Part shown: piece by piece, positions 36,431-53,667 of the stretch
Layout of the letters: every line of letters starts with the position of its first letter
Position numbering within the stretch: position 1 is the first letter of the stretch
Virus record (IMG/VR): IMGVR_UViG_3300047557_002984
Span: 1-64,000 of that record
DNA from: a virus
Length of the DNA: 64,000 nucleotides
Reading direction: 5' to 3' (one strand)
Position numbers and translations under genes: made by a program
Notes under the pieces: model-generated
The model's input: the letters and a program-made list of their open reading frames with translations, nothing else
Told to the model about the DNA's origin: nothing
Database searches by the model: none

Positions 36431-38341
36431 CTAAAACTCCGGTGTAAATGCGTACTCATGCCCCTCTTGTAAAAATGGCACGAACACTTGCACAGCCTGT
36501 CCACGGCTGAGCATTTGCTTGCTGTCGGGGTCAAACCAAAACGGCATGAAGGGCAATTCGCCCTCGCCTTCGCGTTGTTTCTGCACCACCCACGCCCCAT
36601 CCGCGCCGTCGAGCGCGCCTTGTTCTTCGCGCGTCAGCGGCTCGCCAATTGACACTTTGGCCTGTGCCCGTTCGCGCGCCTTGTTGCGCCAAATCGCCAG
36701 CACGTTATCCGCCTGATCCGTGATCCCGCCCGAACCTTTCACGCCGTTGTTATCCGGCGGATTTTCTTCGGTGCCGTCCTTGCGTCCGTGCGCCACCAGC
36801 AAAACGTGCGCGTTGAACTGCTTGGCAAAATTCGCGGCGCGGTCAGCAAACGCGTCCTGTCCGTCTAAGTCGTCGCCGCGAATGCCGCACTTCATCAGCG
36901 AATCAATCACAAAAAACGTCACGCCGTAGCGTCGCCACGCGTACTCGAAGACCTCGAAAATCTTATCCGCCGTCACGCGCCCAACGTGATCAAACAGCCA
37001 CAGCCGGTCGAAGTACCACGTCATCACCTGTCGGATGTACTCCCGCGAGGGCAGGCGCTGCGCGGTCAATTGCCGCACGGCGCGCTTGAGCAACACCGGC
37101 GCTTTCATTTCCAGCGAGGCGATCAACCCGCGCTCTCCGTGTGCAAGCGCGGAGTTCATGATCAGGTTGATTGCCTCCGTCTTGCCGTGGCCGCGATAGC
37201 CCGTCACGATGGTCATTTCGCCCAGGCGAAAGCGAAACTTGTCACCAAAGCCCGCCAGCGGCACAGCAACGCCTGTGTGTGTTCCTTCGTCGGGGTAAAA
37301 CTGCTCAATGACTTGATCCGTAAAGGCAACCGCGCTGCGGAGTTCGTCTGGATCGCACGAATCGGACTCTTCAATCAGCGCGCGCATTTGCTCAGCCGAC
37401 ATGCCCGCGCGAAGGCAATCGTTCACGTCCTTGTGCCCATCCGGCATTTCCGGCACAACGCGGCACCGATGACGCCCCAATCGCTCAATTAAATCCGCCA
37501 CCGCTTCACGGCCCGGCGCATCCTGATCAAAGTTCAGATAAATCACCTCGAACCGCTGCAACTGCTCCCACTCGCTTGCAATCCAGCGGTGTTTGCTGTC
37601 CTTGCCCGCGCCAAACGGTGTCGCCACGGCGGGAATGCCGTACTGATGCCACGTCATCGCGTTGATCTCGCCTTCCACGATCACCACCGCGCGCGCGTTG
37701 GCGGGGAACGCTTGCCAGCCAAACAGGATCGGCTCACAGCCTGCCTCTGCGTCAATCAGCTTTTTGCCGTCAGGCCGTTCCGTGCCCAGGTACTTCACAA
37801 ACTTCAACTCGCCAGACGCCGCCGCTTTGAACGGGAACACCACCGCCGGGCAGGAATGCCGCCCGCTTTTGGCGGCAAAGCTATGTTCCGTTTGCGCGCC
37901 AACTTGAAACGCCTTGATCGTTTCCGCGCTTAGCCCGCGCTCGCGTGTCAGGTAATCCAGCACGGCGTTGCGCGGCATCGTTAGGTTTTTCACTTGCGGC
38001 TTGCGGTACTCAACCGGCGTCTCCGCAAATTTTGAGGCCCGCTGCAATTGCGGTTCGTGAATCCCTAGGAAGTTTTTCGCCCACGTCAGCGCTTCGTTCA
38101 GCGCCACCCCACGCACGGCGCAGTACAAATCCAGCAGGTCGCCGCTTTTACCGGCGGCGAAGTCTGCCCACAGGCCCGCCTTTTCGCCCGAAAGATGCAC
38201 TTTCAGGCTTTGGCCCGGTTCGCCCGCCGTTGAGCCAACGCACCACTCTTGGCCGACGCGCTTTCCGTTAGGGAACAGCGCGCGCGCGACCGATTCGGCG
38301 CGCGCGGCAAGCTGTGTTTTGATCTGTCCGGCGTCAATCAT
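36431..38341 (-). CDS. Primase-helicase (TOPRIM + DnaB-like SF4, T7 gp4/Twinkle-like)
   Basis: VEGE.NA and D.D.PG TOPRIM motifs; GYRGHGKT, SLEM, VIDSL, LVAH.RK and GSG.I...ADN. Confidence 0.92.
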   Translation of the reverse strand: MIDAGQIKTQLAARAESVARALFPNGKRVGQEWCVGSTAGEPGQSLKVHLSGEKAGLWADFAAGKSGDLLDLYCAVRGVALNEALTWAKNFLGIHEPQLQRASKFAETPVEYRKPQVKNLTMPRNAVLDYLTRERGLSAETIKAFQVGAQTEHSFAAKSGRHSCPAVVFPFKAAASGELKFVKYLGTERPDGKKLIDAEAGCEPILFGWQAFPANARAVVIVEGEINAMTWHQYGIPAVATPFGAGKDSKHRWIASEWEQLQRFEVIYLNFDQDAPGREAVADLIERLGRHRCRVVPEMPDGHKDVNDCLRAGMSAEQMRALIEESDSCDPDELRSAVAFTDQVIEQFYPDEGTHTGVAVPLAGFGDKFRFRLGEMTIVTGYRGHGKTEAINLIMNSALAHGERGLIASLEMKAPVLLKRAVRQLTAQRLPSREYIRQVMTWYFDRLWLFDHVGRVTADKIFEVFEYAWRRYGVTFFVIDSLMKCGIRGDDLDGQDAFADRAANFAKQFNAHVLLVAHGRKDGTEENPPDNNGVKGSGGITDQADNVLAIWRNKARERAQAKVSIGEPLTREEQGALDGADGAWVVQKQREGEGELPFMPFWFDPDSKQMLSRGQAVQVFVPFLQEGHEYAFTPEF

Positions 38342-38344
38342 CGG

Positions 38345-39355
38345 TTAAGCCACCAGCCCTTGTTGTTTTGCCTTCTGGTAATTTTCCATCGTCCAGCGGC
38401 GCTGCTCGCCAAGGCTCATTTGCTCCCAATTCGCTGGTTTGGGCGGCATCGGGATCACAACGGCCCCTTCCGGCACAGGAAAGCATCCGCCGATACGTGT
38501 CGGGGGTTGAGGTTGGCCAGCAAGCGAGACGTGGAACAGGTCTTTAAACGCCCACGGGCTAAGCGCCTTCGTCGGGTAGCGGGCAGCCAGCCACGAAGGA
38601 AAGGCCCGCACGTCGGCGGCTGTTGCCTTCAGCGAGAGCGCAAATTCCGCGAGTTCGCGCATCGTGCTAAAGTTCGTTGCGTGGCCAGGAAAAACATCCT
38701 CCAACGCTGTGCCCAACTCTCCGTGCGGGGCAGCCGTAGGCGGGGGGCTGGTTTTCCCCCTGGTTTTCCCCCTGGTTTTCTTCTGGTTTTCTTCTGGTTT
38801 TTGTGTGTCTGTTGAACAGACCACCTCCGGTCTGTTGGACTGACTACCTCCGGTCTGTTGAACAGACCATCTCTGGTCTGTTGGACTGACTACCCCTGGT
38901 CTGTTCAACAGACTACCCCTGGTCTGTTCAACAGACTGGCTCTGGCGGGCAGATTCTGTTTGCCGGATGGCTCTCTCGGCTTTTTGTCCGGCGCGCGCTT
39001 GCAGGATGTCCAGGCGGACATTGTTGGAGTCCATTTCCAATTCGTAGCACGCCCCGTCGTTGGATAGGTTGTTCTCGTCCGCCTTGACCAGCAAGCCGAC
39101 CTCGACCAAATACGCCAACCCGTGAATGACGGTTGAGCGCCCCAAGCCCGTGCCGTGGTCGCGGATTTCGCCATTGGCCCCGCGTGCGCCGTTGCAGAAC
39201 TGCGACAGGCTGATGCGATCCCGCTGCTTATGAAAGCCCATAATGCGACGCACGGCATACAGCAACAGAGCTAGCTCCGTGCCGGTCAGCAAGTGCATAA
39301 CCTCATCCACGTAGAAATTCGGCACCTGAAACGTATTCGGATGAATCTTTGACAA
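38345..39355 (-). CDS. Replication initiator (lambda O-like)
   Basis: FQVPN..VD, R...GF.K..DRISLSQF and TGL.RSTV wHTH; internal iterons; TTG start after AGGAG. Confidence 0.85.
   Translation of the reverse strand: MSKIHPNTFQVPNFYVDEVMHLLTGTELALLLYAVRRIMGFHKQRDRISLSQFCNGARGANGEIRDHGTGLGRSTVIHGLAYLVEVGLLVKADENNLSNDGACYELEMDSNNVRLDILQARAGQKAERAIRQTESARQSQSVEQTRGSLLNRPGVVSPTDQRWSVQQTGGSQSNRPEVVCSTDTQKPEENQKKTRGKTRGKTSPPPTAAPHGELGTALEDVFPGHATNFSTMRELAEFALSLKATAADVRAFPSWLAARYPTKALSPWAFKDLFHVSLAGQPQPPTRIGGCFPVPEGAVVIPMPPKPANWEQMSLGEQRRWTMENYQKAKQQGLVA
38748..38936. repeat. Putative replication origin: six 23-bp iterons and five 11-12-bp pyrimidine-rich repeats
   Basis: GTCTGTT-N-AACAGAC-type units at a 23-bp period from 38807; CTGGTTTT repeats at 38748-38802. 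Confidence 0.9.
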
Positions 39356-39586
39356 AACGCACCTCTCCTGATACGCCAGCGAATCTGGCGCTCGCAATGC
39401 CTGCCCGGCTCAGGGCAGGCGAGAACTAAGGAAACGAGATTGCGCCGGTGAGGGCGCTAGGTCTGAGGCGGGCGCGTGGGCACCGTTCGTCCGTCCAGGC
39501 CGTCGCCGCGCGTGGATTGGGGCGGTGCGCGCGACGCTCGCGTTAGCTTCGGGGGCTGACGCGTGGGTTAGGGTTGATCGTTAGGG

Positions 39587-40504
39587 CTAAGTGATTGCGC
39601 CATCATTGGCGGTCAGGATTCCGTAGCCTTTGCAATGTCGGCAGACTTTCACGCCACCATCGAGCGCCTTCATTCTTTCCTCGACATAAGTATCAAGCTT
39701 CGCCTTAAGCGCGAAATAGTTTTCAGCTTCAAGCTGCGGCAAATCGCCCATCTTTAATTCGATCAGGCTGCGCTGAATTGAACGCAGAGGACTTACTGTG
39801 ACCTTGCCACGTCCGCCACTTCTGCCGGTTTTACCCGCAACGCTTTCTTGATGCTCCACGGGCAATAACTGCTTCACGTAAAACGAGTAGTCCGGCGTGT
39901 AGGAAACTTCAACGCTGTCGCCTTGTTGAGCGATGCGTTCTTTGAGTTTTTTCGTGACATACCGAAACGCTTCTTTGCTGCTTACGGCGCACGGGTATTT
40001 GTAGTAACTGACCGGATGAAAATCGAGCGCGTAGGGAAATTTTGAAATCACCTCAAAGGCAAGTGTGATCGGTTCACAGTCCTCGTCTACGATGTCAACG
40101 GTCACGTCTTCCAGCCTTAGATCGTGACTCGGTACAACGCGGCGCACCATCTGGTAAAGGCCGAAAATCTCATCATTCTTGCGCTCATCGTCGTCATCGT
40201 ATACAAAGAAATCTAACTCCACGGTCGGAGAAAGATGCGAGAGCGAGCTAAACTCCGGCTTCAGTTCGTAATGGGAAGGCTCGGTTGTTTGAGGCTTCTG
40301 AATACTGACCACCTGGGGCGCTCCACCAAGTTGCGCCGCATCTGCGAAATACCATTGCGAATTACCGGGGCATTGATTCACGGGCACCCCGTTGATTTTC
40401 AGGATGTCGCCGTATTCCACCCGCAACGGCAGGTACGGGCTGGGCTGGAAGTAGTATCTGCCGTCTTTTTTAATGGCTAGCATTTTATTTTTCATATTGC
40501 CCAT
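39587..40504 (-). CDS. Hypothetical protein with terminal CxxCxGxG
   Basis: 305-aa ORF. Confidence 0.7.
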   Translation of the reverse strand: MGNMKNKMLAIKKDGRYYFQPSPYLPLRVEYGDILKINGVPVNQCPGNSQWYFADAAQLGGAPQVVSIQKPQTTEPSHYELKPEFSSLSHLSPTVELDFFVYDDDDERKNDEIFGLYQMVRRVVPSHDLRLEDVTVDIVDEDCEPITLAFEVISKFPYALDFHPVSYYKYPCAVSSKEAFRYVTKKLKERIAQQGDSVEVSYTPDYSFYVKQLLPVEHQESVAGKTGRSGGRGKVTVSPLRSIQRSLIELKMGDLPQLEAENYFALKAKLDTYVEERMKALDGGVKVCRHCKGYGILTANDGAIT

Positions 40505-41699: not shown

Positions 41700-42049
41700 G
41701 GCCAGTAATCTGCTCCCGCACCGAATCGCGGCAACTCTACCGCGTGCGGGCGTTCGGCAAACATTGCTTCTCGATAATCCAGCGCTTCCGACGTGATCTG
41801 CCATTCGGCGAACGTGGGCGGGTGCGCGACAATCGGCGGCTGCTCGGCGGCGGTGATGTAAGGCTCTGTGGATGGTGTCATTGGCAAAGACTTTCCCAGC
41901 CTGTTACAGCATAAAGAATCGGCCAGCGATGAAACGGCGCGACATCTGAAGCGAAACAAGCGTGATGCTCGCCATCCGTTGCTTCTTTTCCGTCGCGGTA
42001 AATTACAAGCACGGGGACATTCCCCGTCAGTGCGCCATTTTCCCGCCAT
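41696..42049 (-). CDS. Hypothetical protein
   Basis: ATGA-coupled to the next gene; real start probably internal (MTPSTEP). Confidence 0.4.
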   Translation of the reverse strand: MAGKWRTDGECPRACNLPRRKRSNGWRASRLFRFRCRAVSSLADSLCCNRLGKSLPMTPSTEPYITAAEQPPIVAHPPTFAEWQITSEALDYREAMFAERPHAVELPRFGAGADYWP

Positions 42050-42208
42050 TGCAATGAAGGAGCGCCGCCCTGTAGGGGCAAGCGACGCCCCCCGGCCCTC
42101 GGCAGTGAAGCACTGCGAGCGGTTGAGCGAGCGGGCGGAATGGAGACGTGCCAGGGCTTCCGGTGTCTTCCGACCGCCCCGACCCGTTCTCGGCTTCGCC
42201 GGATGGCG

Positions 42209-42523
42209 CTATTCATCCGGCCACTCGCCCCTCTCTTTCAAGGCAGCAGTTACGTCAAAGCCTGCTGCTGGTGTGATGGCAAATCCGGGGGGATTCGGTT
42301 TCTTTTTGTGAGCGTTAAGGCTCATTGCCATATTTTGCGCAAACTCAATCACGGCTGGATTGCTATTTGCGGCGGCGCTATTCGTAATCCAATCTACTGC
42401 CCAGGAAAGGGCGTTGTTGTATCCCAATCGCTCTCCCTCTAAGAGGGTGCGAACTGTTTGAATTGCTGCTCTTTGAAGAGCTATCTCGCCATCAAGAAGT
42501 TCTTTTTCACTTTTGCTTTTCAT
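42209..42523 (-). CDS. Hypothetical protein
   Basis: ORF in the minus-strand operon. Confidence 0.6.
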   Translation of the reverse strand: MKSKSEKELLDGEIALQRAAIQTVRTLLEGERLGYNNALSWAVDWITNSAAANSNPAVIEFAQNMAMSLNAHKKKPNPPGFAITPAAGFDVTAALKERGEWPDE

Positions 42524-42586
42524 AAGTAATCAATATCCAGAACGGATGAAAACCGGAAATCTTTTCGCCAATAGCCCATTCGGATG

Positions 42587-42778
42587 TCACCCGAAGGGGC
42601 GGGCATAGTAGAAACGAGCGACGCACCAGAGAAGCAGGAGCGAGTCACGCAGGCGGGCGGGACTCCGAACCGCGAGCACCGGCCACAGCAGCGCGGTCGG
42701 CGCATCGTGTAGACAGACATACACACCGCCAGCGACGATTAGGTACAGCACGAATAACACAGACAAGAAATCTTTCAT
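42587..42778 (-). CDS. Small membrane protein
   Basis: Hydrophobic, 63 aa. Confidence 0.5.
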   Translation of the reverse strand: MKDFLSVLFVLYLIVAGGVYVCLHDAPTALLWPVLAVRSPARLRDSLLLLWCVARFYYARPFG

Positions 42779-42972
42779 TGCGTAGCTAAAAATTGCCCGG
42801 CAGCGTAACTACCGGGCCAAAAGGTTGTAACAACATAGGCTCCGCGCCTATCCCTCGCCGCGTGGCGAAGATCGTTTGCGCATTGCTGCGCAGAAATTAC
42901 GGCTGGCGGGAGTACAACCACCAGCCGACTGCCCGCTCCCCCGTCTCTCCTTTGCGGGCAATATCAAACTCT

Positions 42973-43012
42973 TGGTGCAGCGGCAGGGGAGCTTGATAAG
43001 CCCTGCCGCTGC
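42973..43012 (-). ncRNA. 12-bp minihelix ending in ACCA
   Basis: GCAGCGGCAGGG-loop-CCCTGCCGCTGC-ACCA. Confidence 0.45.
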
Positions 43013-43049
43013 TATCGCCCGCATACAAGGAATTGCGGGCAATCTTTTT

Positions 43050-43130
43050 GCGCGCCTTCGGGAATCGAACCCGCTGCCCGTCTGATTGGTCGCTAAACCT
43101 CTCTAGGCGTCCTTATGGGGCGCAGCGCGC
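43050..43130 (-). ncRNA. tRNA-like element (non-canonical or pseudo-tRNA)
   Basis: 7-bp closing stem GCGCGCT/GGCGCGC and T-arm CGGG-TTCGATT-CCCG; D and anticodon arms irregular. Confidence 0.55.
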
Positions 43131-43221
43131 AAAATCATAAATGTAAAGACCGGGCGGGGCGGTGCGCCGCTATGGCCTAGATGTAGGCACTGGCGCTGGT
43201 GTCATTCCGCCCCGGTAGTCG

Positions 43222-43416
43222 CTACTTAGAGTCGCGCGCGCCGCGCCGGTGACTCGTTGCGCCCCGCTGGGGCTGCACTCGTTTCAACCGGCGCAAGAAT
43301 TTTTCGACTCTTTGCACGCAGGTTCCTGTTTCCGCGAGCGCCATCGCTCTCCGCAGGCGTAACTTCCGGGCCTCTCGCCCGTAGAGGATTGCCAGCCTGT
43401 TGCGATTGCTCGCCAT
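43222..43416 (-). CDS. Small basic protein
   Basis: GAGGTG RBS; embedded in the hairpin array. Confidence 0.5.
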   Translation of the reverse strand: MASNRNRLAILYGREARKLRLRRAMALAETGTCVQRVEKFLRRLKRVQPQRGATSHRRGARDSK

Positions 43417-43452
43417 TCACCTCAAACAATCACAGTTGCGCGGCTGGCAAAT

Positions 43453-43516
43453 TGGTGGCTACGATTGGCGATTGGCTTCCGCGAACCGCCTGCGCGTCGC
43501 AACGCACACCGTAGCC
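43453..43516 (-). ncRNA. 64-nt three-way-junction RNA ending in ACCA
   Basis: GGCTACG...CGTAGCC-ACCA enclosing two hairpins. Confidence 0.5.
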
Positions 43517-43632
43517 ATAATTGAAAAGACCTTGTAAAAAAAAACGGGCGCGCGTTTCCACGCGCCCAAGCTCCCACTTCCAATCATTCAAGGAGATTCG
43601 CCACGATGCCCGGCGACCGGCTACCCGATGCG

Positions 43633-44316
43633 CTATGCAGGCAGCGCAAAATAATCTTTAGCAAATCGTTGCAACACCGGATGCGGAGGCATTCCCTGAC
43701 GCAAGTGATGAATGGCTTGGCCGACAATGTAACGCCCCATCCGTTCGCGCGTGTTGAACGATTCCGCCGGTTCGCCGACGAGATCACTTTCGCGGTATCC
43801 GGCACTAATCAATAGCGTGGCCAGCCATTCCTTCCCGCCGCGACGCAAGCCGGTAGCCTTGTTCCAGTCAATGTCTACATCGTCAGCATCTTCCACGAAG
43901 GAGTTGAGCCAGCCAATCACCACGTCTAATCGTGTCAGCGGTGCAATGTCCGCTTCCTGTAACGCAAGCAGACCGGGCAAGCCACGAATGGCAGCAGTCA
44001 CAGCGTCTTGCCGTTTGGCCAGTTCGAGTGCGCGGCGTCCAGCGTATGCCTTGCCCGCCGCCGACGCTCGCCAAGCCTTTCTTTCGGCTTCCATCGCGGC
44101 CATATAGCGCGCTTCAATCGCTTTGGCGTTGTCCTCTTGCGGGCGAACGCGCATGAGGATGTCGTTGAACTTAAAAACGACTTCCGCATTGTTTCGCCGC
44201 GCCAGTTGCAACGCTTGCCTTGCAGCGAAGCCGATGCTGTCACCGGCACATAGCTCCATCTTTAACATTCGCTTTGGTTGATTGCGCTTGGCGCGTTTAT
44301 GAGCCGTCTTTAGCAT
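43633..44316 (-). CDS. Hypothetical protein
   Basis: AAGGAG RBS; conserved-looking C-terminus YIVGQAI..L..GMPPHP. Confidence 0.7.
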   Translation of the reverse strand: MLKTAHKRAKRNQPKRMLKMELCAGDSIGFAARQALQLARRNNAEVVFKFNDILMRVRPQEDNAKAIEARYMAAMEAERKAWRASAAGKAYAGRRALELAKRQDAVTAAIRGLPGLLALQEADIAPLTRLDVVIGWLNSFVEDADDVDIDWNKATGLRRGGKEWLATLLISAGYRESDLVGEPAESFNTRERMGRYIVGQAIHHLRQGMPPHPVLQRFAKDYFALPA

Positions 44317-44804
44317 CGTCTTTCTCCTTACTCATTCCCCAGCAGCACGCACATCACCAGCGCTTGCCGGATGCTGCGTGTCCGCTGTTCGTGGCGCGCA
44401 CGGCGGGCAACGCGCCAGTGATCATATGCTGTGCGCAGGATAGCCAAACCGCCGACCACGCCCAACACGCCGCAGGTGATTAGGATTGCTGTGATCATTG
44501 CAGCGCTCCTTCCAGTTCAGCCTTTTCAGCTTTCAGCCTTTCAATGCTGCCTGCGACCCAGATTTTCATTTCAAACTTCGGACATTTGCGGTCGTCACTG
44601 GAAGGGCCGGATTTGCGACCGCTAGGCAACAATGTTTCTTGCGGACAACGGGAAGTCATCCACAGATTGCAACTACCGCATCTTGTTTGCAGCTTCAGTA
44701 TCTCGTTAGGGATTTCACGGAGTCGCTTGATTATCATGTGCTTGTCGCTCATCGCATTTCCTCGAAAGGGCGCGGCCCCCAGTGTGCTCATTTTGCCGCG
44801 CCCT

Positions 44805-52773: not shown

Positions 52774-53667
52774 ATGAAAAACCAAGCCCTTGCCATAGTT
52801 CAATTGCCTGCGCTCGCACAGCGCTTTACGTCTGCCACGTCTGATGACGATCTGGTAGATAGCTGGATACGCGTTAAAGGCTCAAGAAGCACGCACACGC
52901 GCGACGCCTACGGAAAGATCGCTGCTGATTTCCTAACGTTTGCTGGCTGCCCGCTGTCACAGGTCACAATTGATCGGCTGCAAGATTACGCGGACTCGTT
53001 AAAGGAATATTCCGCCGCGACGCAACGCCAGCGCATCTTTGCCGTCAAGAGCTTGCTGAGCTATGGGCAAAAAACCGGCTATTTGCAATTCAACGTTGGC
53101 GCGGCACTGCAAGCGCCCGCCGCGAAAAATGAACTGGCGCAGCGCTTCCTGAGCGAAACAGACATCTTCAAGTTGATCGAGTCCGAGACAAATACGCGAA
53201 ATCGTTTGTTGCTTCGATTGCTGTACGTGAGCGGCGCGCGCATTAGCGAGGCGCTGGCGCTGCGCTGGTCTGATCTGACGCCGCGCGAAAACGGCGGACA
53301 GGTGACGATCTTTGGCAAAGGCAGCAAAACCCGGCAAGTCTTAATTCCGGGTAAGTTGTGGGATGACCTGCAATTGGTGCGCGGGGAAGACGACGCGCCG
53401 GTGTTTACGTCGCCACGTTCAGACGGCAAGCCGTTGTGCCGCAAGTCTGGCTGGTACATCGTCAAGCAAGCGGTCAAGCGTGCCGGGATTAACTGGAAGG
53501 CATCTTGCCAGTGGTTGCGGCACGCACACGCGACGCACGCATTAAAGCGCCACGCGGACATTAAGCTTGTCAGCGCGACGCTGGGGCATTCAAACGTTTC
53601 GGTTACAAACGTCTACTTAGACGCGCAACCGGGCGAAAGCTCGTCAACATTTTTAATGGGAGTGTAA
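52774..53667 (+). CDS. Tyrosine recombinase (XerC/D-like)
   Basis: GARISE, GKG.K.R, QWLRH..ATH and LGH......VY motifs. Confidence 0.93.
   Translation: MKNQALAIVQLPALAQRFTSATSDDDLVDSWIRVKGSRSTHTRDAYGKIAADFLTFAGCPLSQVTIDRLQDYADSLKEYSAATQRQRIFAVKSLLSYGQKTGYLQFNVGAALQAPAAKNELAQRFLSETDIFKLIESETNTRNRLLLRLLYVSGARISEALALRWSDLTPRENGGQVTIFGKGSKTRQVLIPGKLWDDLQLVRGEDDAPVFTSPRSDGKPLCRKSGWYIVKQAVKRAGINWKASCQWLRHAHATHALKRHADIKLVSATLGHSNVSVTNVYLDAQPGESSSTFLMGV

Follow-up and report, generated by a model that had tools for sequence, protein, structure and literature searches.

Background

Genes for tRNAs carried by phages are now viewed as counter-measures against tRNA-targeting immunity, and the CI RNA of phage P4 is a regulator which is processed by RNase P. 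The C4 regulatory RNA of phages P1 and P7 is likewise an RNase P-processed molecule, its processing being documented (PMC4919922, reference 206 therein). The locus described below resembles C4 in being phage-encoded, in its predicted placement within a longer transcript and in the possession of a helix with a 3' CCA suited to RNase P, but it differs from C4 in showing neither target complementarity nor an immunity-gene context, nor any relation by sequence or in Rfam. A second point of comparison is provided by the t-elements of plant mitochondria, tRNA-like structures which mark mRNA ends (PMC1920247). The shared features are acceptor-type tRNA-like structures situated between genes, with a proposed role in setting mRNA ends via the tRNA-processing enzymes. 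The t-elements belong, however, to another domain of life, whereas the phage array comprises several unlike modules in a row. Finally, the anti-phage toxSAS enzymes recognise an acceptor by its first five base pairs together with the CCA, and they accept a bare minihelix of synthetic origin as a substrate for modification (bioRxiv 10.1101/2024.07.05.602228). Such a minihelix, a substrate of RNase P and toxSAS alike, has the same geometry as a 12-bp helix followed by ACCA in the present array, and another element of the array, E1, offers the first acceptor base pairs and the CCA. Unlike the synthetic molecule, the array helix is natural, has a loop of 12 nt rather than 7 nt, is buried in a larger hairpin (E8) and is apparently absent from a close variant.

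Phage RNAs which resemble tRNAs and are processed by RNase P have been described before, as has tRNA-like punctuation. The distinctive feature of this locus is that the acceptor end of tRNA-Met is joined to a body unlike that of a tRNA, in an early operon of the lambdoid type which contains no true tRNA gene. Full-text literature searches found no published account of such a combination.

Genomic context of the array

The window analysed here comprises the first 64 kb (64,000 nt) of a 74,321-bp IMG/VR virus record, which is classed as linear and has a CheckV completeness estimate of 74%. Near-identical DNA occurs in runs from 13 studies, covering freshwater, wastewater and activated-sludge samples. 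The presence of a tyrosine integrase gene (53164-53628), approximately 10 kb from the array, marks the phage as temperate. Its early operon, transcribed from the minus strand, runs from a gene for a 227-aa protein through the array and several small ORFs to genes for a Gad1-like anti-defence protein, an O-like replication initiator and a primase/helicase (Table 1). The Gad1-like gene and E1 are thereby located in the same operon. The 227-aa protein matched no Pfam or PHROG family and has four homologues in a set of 5.8 billion proteins. No sigma-70-type promoter was found within 42000-44500. An ATG lies at 42778, E13 being the last element before it. A retron or DGR RNA was rejected as a candidate, given that the 74-kb record contains no match to the reverse transcriptase family RVT_1.

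Structure, strand and coding potential

Approximately 750 nt between the terminator T0 and the next plausible gene start are devoid of a credible ORF, and in this interval we count 13 hairpins (E1-E13), in addition to T0 upstream of them. When the region is folded as a single stretch of 861 nt, its minus strand has a z-score of -7.8 and its plus strand one of -5.5, and the array ranks within the top three 750-nt blocks of the 74-kb genome in degree of structure. Seven separately folded segments (E1, E2, E5, E6, E8, E9 and E10-13) have z-scores of -3.3 or below. The minus-strand version is the more stable one for 12 of 14 hairpins, E6 being more stable on the plus strand, and G-U pairs number 25 on the minus strand against 12 on the plus strand. 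These asymmetries, to which the G excess of the minus strand contributes, point to a predicted RNA of the transcribed minus strand rather than to palindromes in the DNA.

Judged by codon usage, the 227-aa gene has clearly positive log-odds, whereas the values between 43600 and 42800 are negative or close to zero. The short ORFs inside the array translate to GC-rich noise abundant in Arg, Ala and Gly, and one of them crosses the terminator. The earlier note on this DNA, made from the letters alone, had seen about ten GC-rich hairpins in largely non-coding minus-strand DNA; this description holds, with a slightly larger number of hairpins and no convincing coding signal. The four elements which it had singled out (a 12-bp helix, a three-way junction, a canonical T loop and a branched element at 43149-43216) are all present on the minus strand where it had placed them, the last corresponding to E6. 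Its suggestion that the hairpins mimic CRISPR repeats finds no support: beyond two short pairs the array contains no repeat family, there is no repeated unit, and the sole match to a CRISPR direct repeat (E 8.6) lies outside it, at 42553-42615.

Table 1. Elements of the array and neighbouring genes of the early operon, with positions in the window; z, fold z-score
Feature	Position	Strand	z	Description
227-aa gene	43633-44316	-		Function unassigned; last gene before the array; clear coding signal by codon usage
T0	43536-43568	-	-3.05	Intrinsic terminator; GC-rich stem of 9-10 bp (43545-43568), GAAA-type loop, nine U
E1	43453-43517	-	-4.1	Three-way (Y-shaped) junction
E2	43389-43450	-	-4.07	9-bp closing stem and inner 12-bp stem; inverted repeat I11; starts 2 nt past E1
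E3/E4	43300-43388	-	-0.22	Small hairpins, not above chance
E5	43228-43312	-	-4.22	Long nested hairpin; GAGUC/GACUC, GCGCCGGU/ACCGGCGC, GCCCC/GGGGC
E6	43147-43222	-	-3.35	Branched hairpin; 8-bp GGGGCGG stem, U-rich stretch after it
E7	43046-43134	-	-1.7 (own fold)	tRNA-like element
E8	42927-43044	-	-6.46	118-nt nested hairpin; repeats D2, I1, I9, I10
12-bp helix, inside E8	42973-43012	-	-5.0	Perfect helix, 12-nt loop, then ACCA; minihelix geometry
E9	42900-42927	-	-5.77	10-bp hairpin, then UAAUUUCU; terminator-like
E10-E12	42829-42892	-	-4.33 (42790-42895)	E10 (6 bp, GCAA loop), then second Y-shaped junction with E11 and E12
E13	42788-42817	-		10-bp hairpin, then AAUUUUU; terminator-like; same in L053 and variant X18
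Gad1-like anti-defence gene	39587-40504	-		PF25705, E 5e-15
O-like replication initiator	38345-39397	-		Downstream of the array
Primase/helicase	36431-38341	-		Downstream of the array

tRNA-derived sequence in E1 and E7

The ends of E1 consist of a 5' GGCTACG and a 3' TCGTAGCC-ACCA (in RNA, GGCUACG ... CGUAGCC-ACCA). When compared with the E. coli genes for elongator tRNA-Met, metT and metU, all 7 base pairs of the acceptor, the discriminator A and the CCA are identical, as is the T preceding the 3' strand. Since tRNA-Met(CAU) genes of approximately a dozen of the 301 genomes in a sample of another phylum carry the same stem, that of E1 is evidently a natural tRNA-Met acceptor stem, although not a universal one. 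The three-way junction and the ACCA which had been noted earlier at 43453-43516 are confirmed, but the outer stem, described at that time as 7 bp, has 9-10 bp because closure over the discriminator by a U-A pair is possible. Inside this stem E1 is unlike a tRNA: a hairpin of 6 bp, with UGCG as its loop, is followed by a single A and by a hairpin of 7+2 bp, with GGAA as its loop. E1 has no match in Rfam even at an E-value of 10. The mitochondrial mode of ARAGORN does call it an armless tRNA, but the call carries no weight because the same mode makes 14 calls across the 74-kb phage.

A second copy of E1 (corresponding to 43453-43522) has 5 differences in 70 nt, and is thus about 93% identical, in contigs in which both flanks are unlike those of this phage. 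Its context is the same in three studies, at a depth which exceeds that of contigs from the phage itself by a factor of 5 to 30, and the likeness stops at 43453, the final A of the CCA. Given the unlike flanks on both sides and the end of the likeness exactly at the CCA, E1 is, on this comparison, a bounded module common to this phage and another, more abundant genome. A micro-ORF of 19 codons within E1 was rejected as a candidate gene: no Shine-Dalgarno-like sequence precedes it, and the combined effect of two known differences of the second copy is a single Arg-to-Gly replacement.

The second element with a specific tRNA relationship is E7, in which an acceptor-like, GC-rich closing stem of 10-11 bp encloses a canonical T arm, CGGG-TTCGATT-CCCG. 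A distantly related phage has a true tRNA-Glu whose T arm consists of the same 17 bases, which is the reason for regarding E7 as containing real tRNA sequence; the 11-mer GGTTCGATTCC is unique in the window. E7 does not encode a CCA, its tail being AAAAAG, and has neither a D arm nor an anticodon arm, in agreement with the earlier observation of a TTCGATT loop without a regular anticodon arm at 43050-43130. It is also the only tRNA-type Rfam match in the array at E-values up to 10: with 18.2 bits, the tRNA-Sec family falls short of its gathering score of 47, the match being driven by the perfect T arm and the GC-rich closing stem. Both the E1 stem and the E7 stem are directly preceded by a U on their 5' side, and a U at the base before the stem is favoured by bacterial RNase P.

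ARAGORN detects no tRNA gene in the window, and its relaxed and mitochondrial modes are dominated genome-wide by false calls. At the gathering threshold no Rfam family matches the array, and GOLLD, ROOL and other large Rfam RNAs were rejected as candidates because none of them gave a match. As compared with canonical tRNAs (RF00005/RF01852), E1 shares the acceptor, the discriminator A and the CCA of tRNA-Met, and E7 shares the T arm; neither, however, reaches the family threshold or folds into a complete cloverleaf (D, anticodon and T arms). E1 lacks the T arm as well, and has the GGAA tetraloop in place of an anticodon loop. The RNAs of E1 and E7 are unable to decode. The tRNA kinship claimed earlier is accordingly real for these two, each of which is identical to a specific part of a tRNA and can be termed a tRNA-derived element, but it does not extend to a tRNA gene that ARAGORN or Rfam would call. 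An attP core overlapping the 3' end of a tRNA was rejected as an explanation on the grounds that the integrase gene is distant and that E1 and E7 have both acceptor strands.

The 12-bp helix and the frequency of CCA ends

The helix inside E8 is perfect in both arms (42977-42988 and 43001-43012), as the earlier note had it. With about 12 bp followed by RCCA it conforms to the minihelix-type substrate of RNase P, against which E1 shows 9-10 bp plus a junction before its (A)CCA. The earlier caveat that the ACCA ends could be due to chance is in part justified, in that such ends exceed chance only modestly. Over the whole genome, 7-bp stems with NCCA directly after them number 62, as against 57 in shuffled sequences, and stems of at least 9 bp followed by NCCA number 7, as against 5.2; two of the latter 7 are in the array, both with ACCA. 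By a rough estimate for about 13 hairpins, two ACCA tails would arise by chance approximately once in a thousand cases, and two NCCA tails approximately twice in a hundred. Because E1 matches tRNA-Met exactly, chance is a much less convincing explanation for its CCA than for the CCA of the 12-bp helix.

A tRNA-processed early leader as the favoured reading

Three of the approximately 13 hairpins, namely E1, E7 and the 12-bp helix, probably represent tRNA-shaped RNAs, built from tRNA parts or imitating them. By virtue of their acceptor-like stems, followed in two of the three by a CCA, they would therefore be substrates of the host enzymes which process tRNA ends. The reading which we favour, tentatively and with rather less than even confidence, is that the array is a non-coding, read-through leader of early RNA made up of independent hairpin modules, of which the three tRNA-derived, non-decoding ones would be handled by RNase P like tRNA ends, with a CCA 3' end. 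It might thus act as a polycistronic precursor yielding CCA-ended small RNAs. In the pathway envisaged, transcription would read through T0, RNase P would cut 5' of the acceptor-like stems, and 3' trimming would halt at the stem and the CCA. The products would be stable, non-decoding small RNAs with tRNA ends, and the long early message would be split into separately stabilised pieces, with E9 and E13 acting as weak terminators or end protectors.

This reading is supported by the excess of structure, the minus-strand preference, the lack of coding signal, the tRNA-derived sequence, the U before the E1 and E7 stems and the occurrence of E1 in a second genome, with C4 and the t-elements as precedents; its weak points are the lack of a promoter, the strong terminator upstream, the negative results with ARAGORN and Rfam, and the loss of modules in close variants. 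A low-depth contig from an RNA library covers T0 into E1 and E2 (43433-43584), a weak hint of read-through of T0, given that DNA can occur in such libraries. The public runs compared at the locus were assembled contigs, and hence show neither RNA ends nor the level of expression, and gaps in their coverage carry no information.

Variation among relatives and the possibility of tRNA decay

The only relative of the array in the scanned collections is a 2.8-kb metagenome contig (L053), 98.3% identical, which was found via the 227-aa protein. Its 43 differences from the window are patchily distributed, with none in the 227-aa gene, E1-E6 or E8. Eight of them cluster in 29 nt of the interior of E7 (43087-43115), the predicted fold of which is not kept between these two 98%-identical sequences, whereas its acceptor stem and T arm show no change; no matching partner sequence was found for this variable loop. 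The changes in T0 and E9-E12 all fall in loops or keep the pairing. Those that preserve pairs comprise a double change by which G-C replaces A-U, in the outer stem AACGAU/GUUGUU which encloses E11 and E12, and three substitutions via G-U which work only on the minus strand: the sole difference in T0, turning a G-C into a G-U, and two U-A/U-G swaps in E11. This structural neutrality is not significant, since between two sequences six random transitions would spare all 45 pairs 15% of the time, and covariation is weak because the single relative is nearly identical.

A further variant, X18, approximately 94% identical, retains E9, E10 and E13, but has 3 nt of the 3' arm of E12 deleted and one E11 pair broken. 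One of its contigs passes directly from 42968 to 43002, which means that the loop and 3' arm of the 12-bp helix are absent or replaced, and the helix with its ACCA thus appears to have been lost or replaced in this variant. The distant homologues of the 227-aa protein (L054-L057, 36-38% identity) have no DNA likeness to the array downstream, and in L054, the only one with enough downstream DNA, ORFs follow the gene at once. Taken together, these comparisons imply that the array is an accessory insertion of this lineage. Searches for other relatives of the array returned nothing relevant from blastn of phage and plasmid records or from exact-pattern scans of IMG/VR, in which four matches, by a rough estimate not exceeding the chance number, had unrelated interiors. 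Pattern scans of genome contigs gave no relative and one chance match (L071), and the whole records of 43 IMG/VR loci encoding a related primase contained none either.

A rival reading is that of a decaying tRNA gene cluster with terminators, in which ancestral tRNA genes near the replication module would have left remnants without function. Relatives with a 40%-identical primase indeed have tRNA genes near the primase gene, with tRNA-Met in four loci, but the acceptor of their tRNA-Met genes differs from that of E1. Erosion would also accommodate the score of E7 far under tRNA thresholds and its variable interior, the dispensability of E12 and of the 12-bp helix in X18, and the lack of an array in L054. 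It would likewise fit the degenerate duplicate which E3/E4 contains of the first (5') half of E13 (43357-43372) and which matches 15 of the 16 bases of 42803-42818. Decay should, however, erode pairing, yet the acceptor of E1 is perfect and surrounds a new and very stable interior, E1 is well conserved with sharp borders in another genome, and most modules are individually much more stable than shuffled versions of themselves. On the whole, we consider decay a possible but somewhat unlikely explanation.

Terminators and a possible role in transcription control

The array lies between the early genes and those for the O-like initiator and primase, a location which, in phage lambda, calls to mind the tR1 and nin terminators, which delay or gate downstream expression until an antiterminator acts. 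Accordingly, the array might be a leader for transcription control, in which T0, E6, E9 and E13, together with alternative folds of E8, gate the anti-defence and replication genes until antitermination. Eight terminator-like sites are found within 42000-44500, as against 3.0 expected, E9 and E13 are kept in both L053 and X18 (the L053 change in E9 falling in the loop), and four segments of E8 permit mutually exclusive pairings. Nevertheless, only T0, with a stem of 10 bp and nine U, has the proper U run of an intrinsic terminator, the tails of E13 and E9 being weaker, and none of the alternatives within E8 is in competition with the stem of E9. Furthermore, neither an antiterminator protein nor a nut/put-like site was identified, and such a leader would not explain the tRNA-Met acceptor with its CCA or the T arm. 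We regard this account as rather doubtful.

Possible acceptor-end decoys

E1, and perhaps the 12-bp helix, could also be acceptor-end decoys, in line with the decoys for tRNA-targeting nucleases suggested in the earlier note, an idea which we rate as improbable. They would be abundant small RNAs displaying the acceptor stem and CCA of a host tRNA on no decoding body, and would soak up defence enzymes which recognise precisely this part, thereby sparing the real tRNA pool. The targets envisaged may be toxSAS (CapRel, FaRel2, PhRel2) or nucleotidyltransferases of the MenT/AbiE type, and E1 may then be a mobile module shared by unrelated phages.

E8 as a possible DNA site or source of antisense RNA

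E8 is built around the 12-bp helix from four copies of a motif of approximately 10 nt, AUUGCCCGCA, two direct and two inverted, the exact motif being present nowhere else in the window. These copies, numbered as segments 1 to 4, can pair as 1:2 with 3:4 or as 2:3 with 1:4. The grouping of direct and inverted copies around a central palindrome, restricted to this place, is what would be expected if the near-palindromic ATTGCCCGCAAT were a protein-binding site in the DNA, such as an operator, partition or recombination site. This interpretation is quite improbable: the minus-strand fold of E8 is 8.6 kcal/mol more stable than the plus-strand fold, with five G-U pairs against one, the integrase gene is remote, and E8 alone would be covered, leaving out the rest of the array.

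When the array (766 nt) was compared with 149 kb of sequence, the best complementary stretches were of 12-16 nt, which is at chance level. The antisense regulators proposed in the earlier note are not borne out either, since complementary stretches elsewhere in this phage reach 12-14 nt at most and are no better than chance. Immunity-type antisense RNAs after the manner of P1 C4 and P4 CI, excised by RNase P and pairing with repeated targets in the same transcript, would suit the CCA-ended helices, the RNase P processing known for C4 and the direct repeats of E8 (segments 1 and 3, each of them the complement of segment 2), an arrangement which resembles the seqA-seqB-seqC layout of P4, but this reading is unsupported and scarcely credible because no complementarity elsewhere in the phage exceeds chance, the variable loop of E7 lacks a partner, and no repressor or antirepressor context was identified.

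Implications

The significance of the locus depends on which of these readings applies. If E1 does act as a decoy, the counter-defence ascribed to the spare tRNAs of phages would be widened to include mimics of tRNA ends. Alternatively, under the favoured reading of a leader handled by RNase P, bacterial viruses would be seen to cut their messages with tRNA-like punctuation. If the modules are instead decayed tRNA genes, the locus would document the erosion of phage tRNA clusters.

Extent of the non-coding tract and related modules

The array of minus-strand hairpin modules is directly followed by a 63-aa ORF (ATG at 42778) whose coding signal is almost nil. No Shine-Dalgarno sequence was seen for it by inspection, and its 10 differences from L053, a closely related metagenome contig, are spread 4/3/3 over codon positions 1/2/3. 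The non-coding tract of the array may therefore extend to ~42524, for a total of 1.1 kb.

The layout of E1, the three-way junction with a tRNA-Met-like acceptor stem, is shared by a second Y-shaped junction, which lacks a CCA tail. Two further segments of the window recur as short stretches in contigs with unlike flanks and at much higher depth, as does E1. In other genomes, 42130, 42208 or 42363 directly adjoins 42589 or 42550, and these segments look like mosaic junction modules common to related phages. In the IMG/VR contig L068, a stretch composed, in order, of GGCTACG, 52 nt and TCGTAGCCACCA directly precedes a terminator, the 5' arm of which overlaps the acceptor 3' strand. This stretch is unrelated to the interior of E1; it may be a tRNA-Met in truncated form, or what remains of an att site.

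The tRNA-like element E7 carries 8 substitutions within 29 nt relative to L053, with the two phages being otherwise 98.3% identical. These centre on one of its apical loops (GGU-UUAGCG-ACC to GGU-GUGGAA-GCC). The cluster would be either the trace of a recombination event or a specificity loop under rapid evolution; a search for a complementary partner of this loop found none.

Positions of features (in the window unless a contig is named)
Feature	Position	Strand	Remarks
Tract after the array, with the 63-aa ORF	42524-42778		
Second Y-shaped junction	42829-42876	-	outer stem, two hairpins one base apart
Mosaic segments	42054-42201, 42553-42669		
Stretch starting with GGCTACG	L068:503-573		
E7 variable patch	43087-43115		
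Strongest local fold	38851-38950	+	-61.6 kcal/mol, z -6.2 (GC-regression measure)
Gabija anti-defence 1 match	39587-40504	-	305 aa, PF25705, E 5.4e-15

Operon context

The operon that contains the array also encodes the Gabija anti-defence 1-like protein, 2.3 kb further downstream. The strongest local fold of the genome falls within the O-like initiator gene of this operon. As the lambda origin is situated within the O gene, this fold is by analogy a likely candidate for the replication origin.
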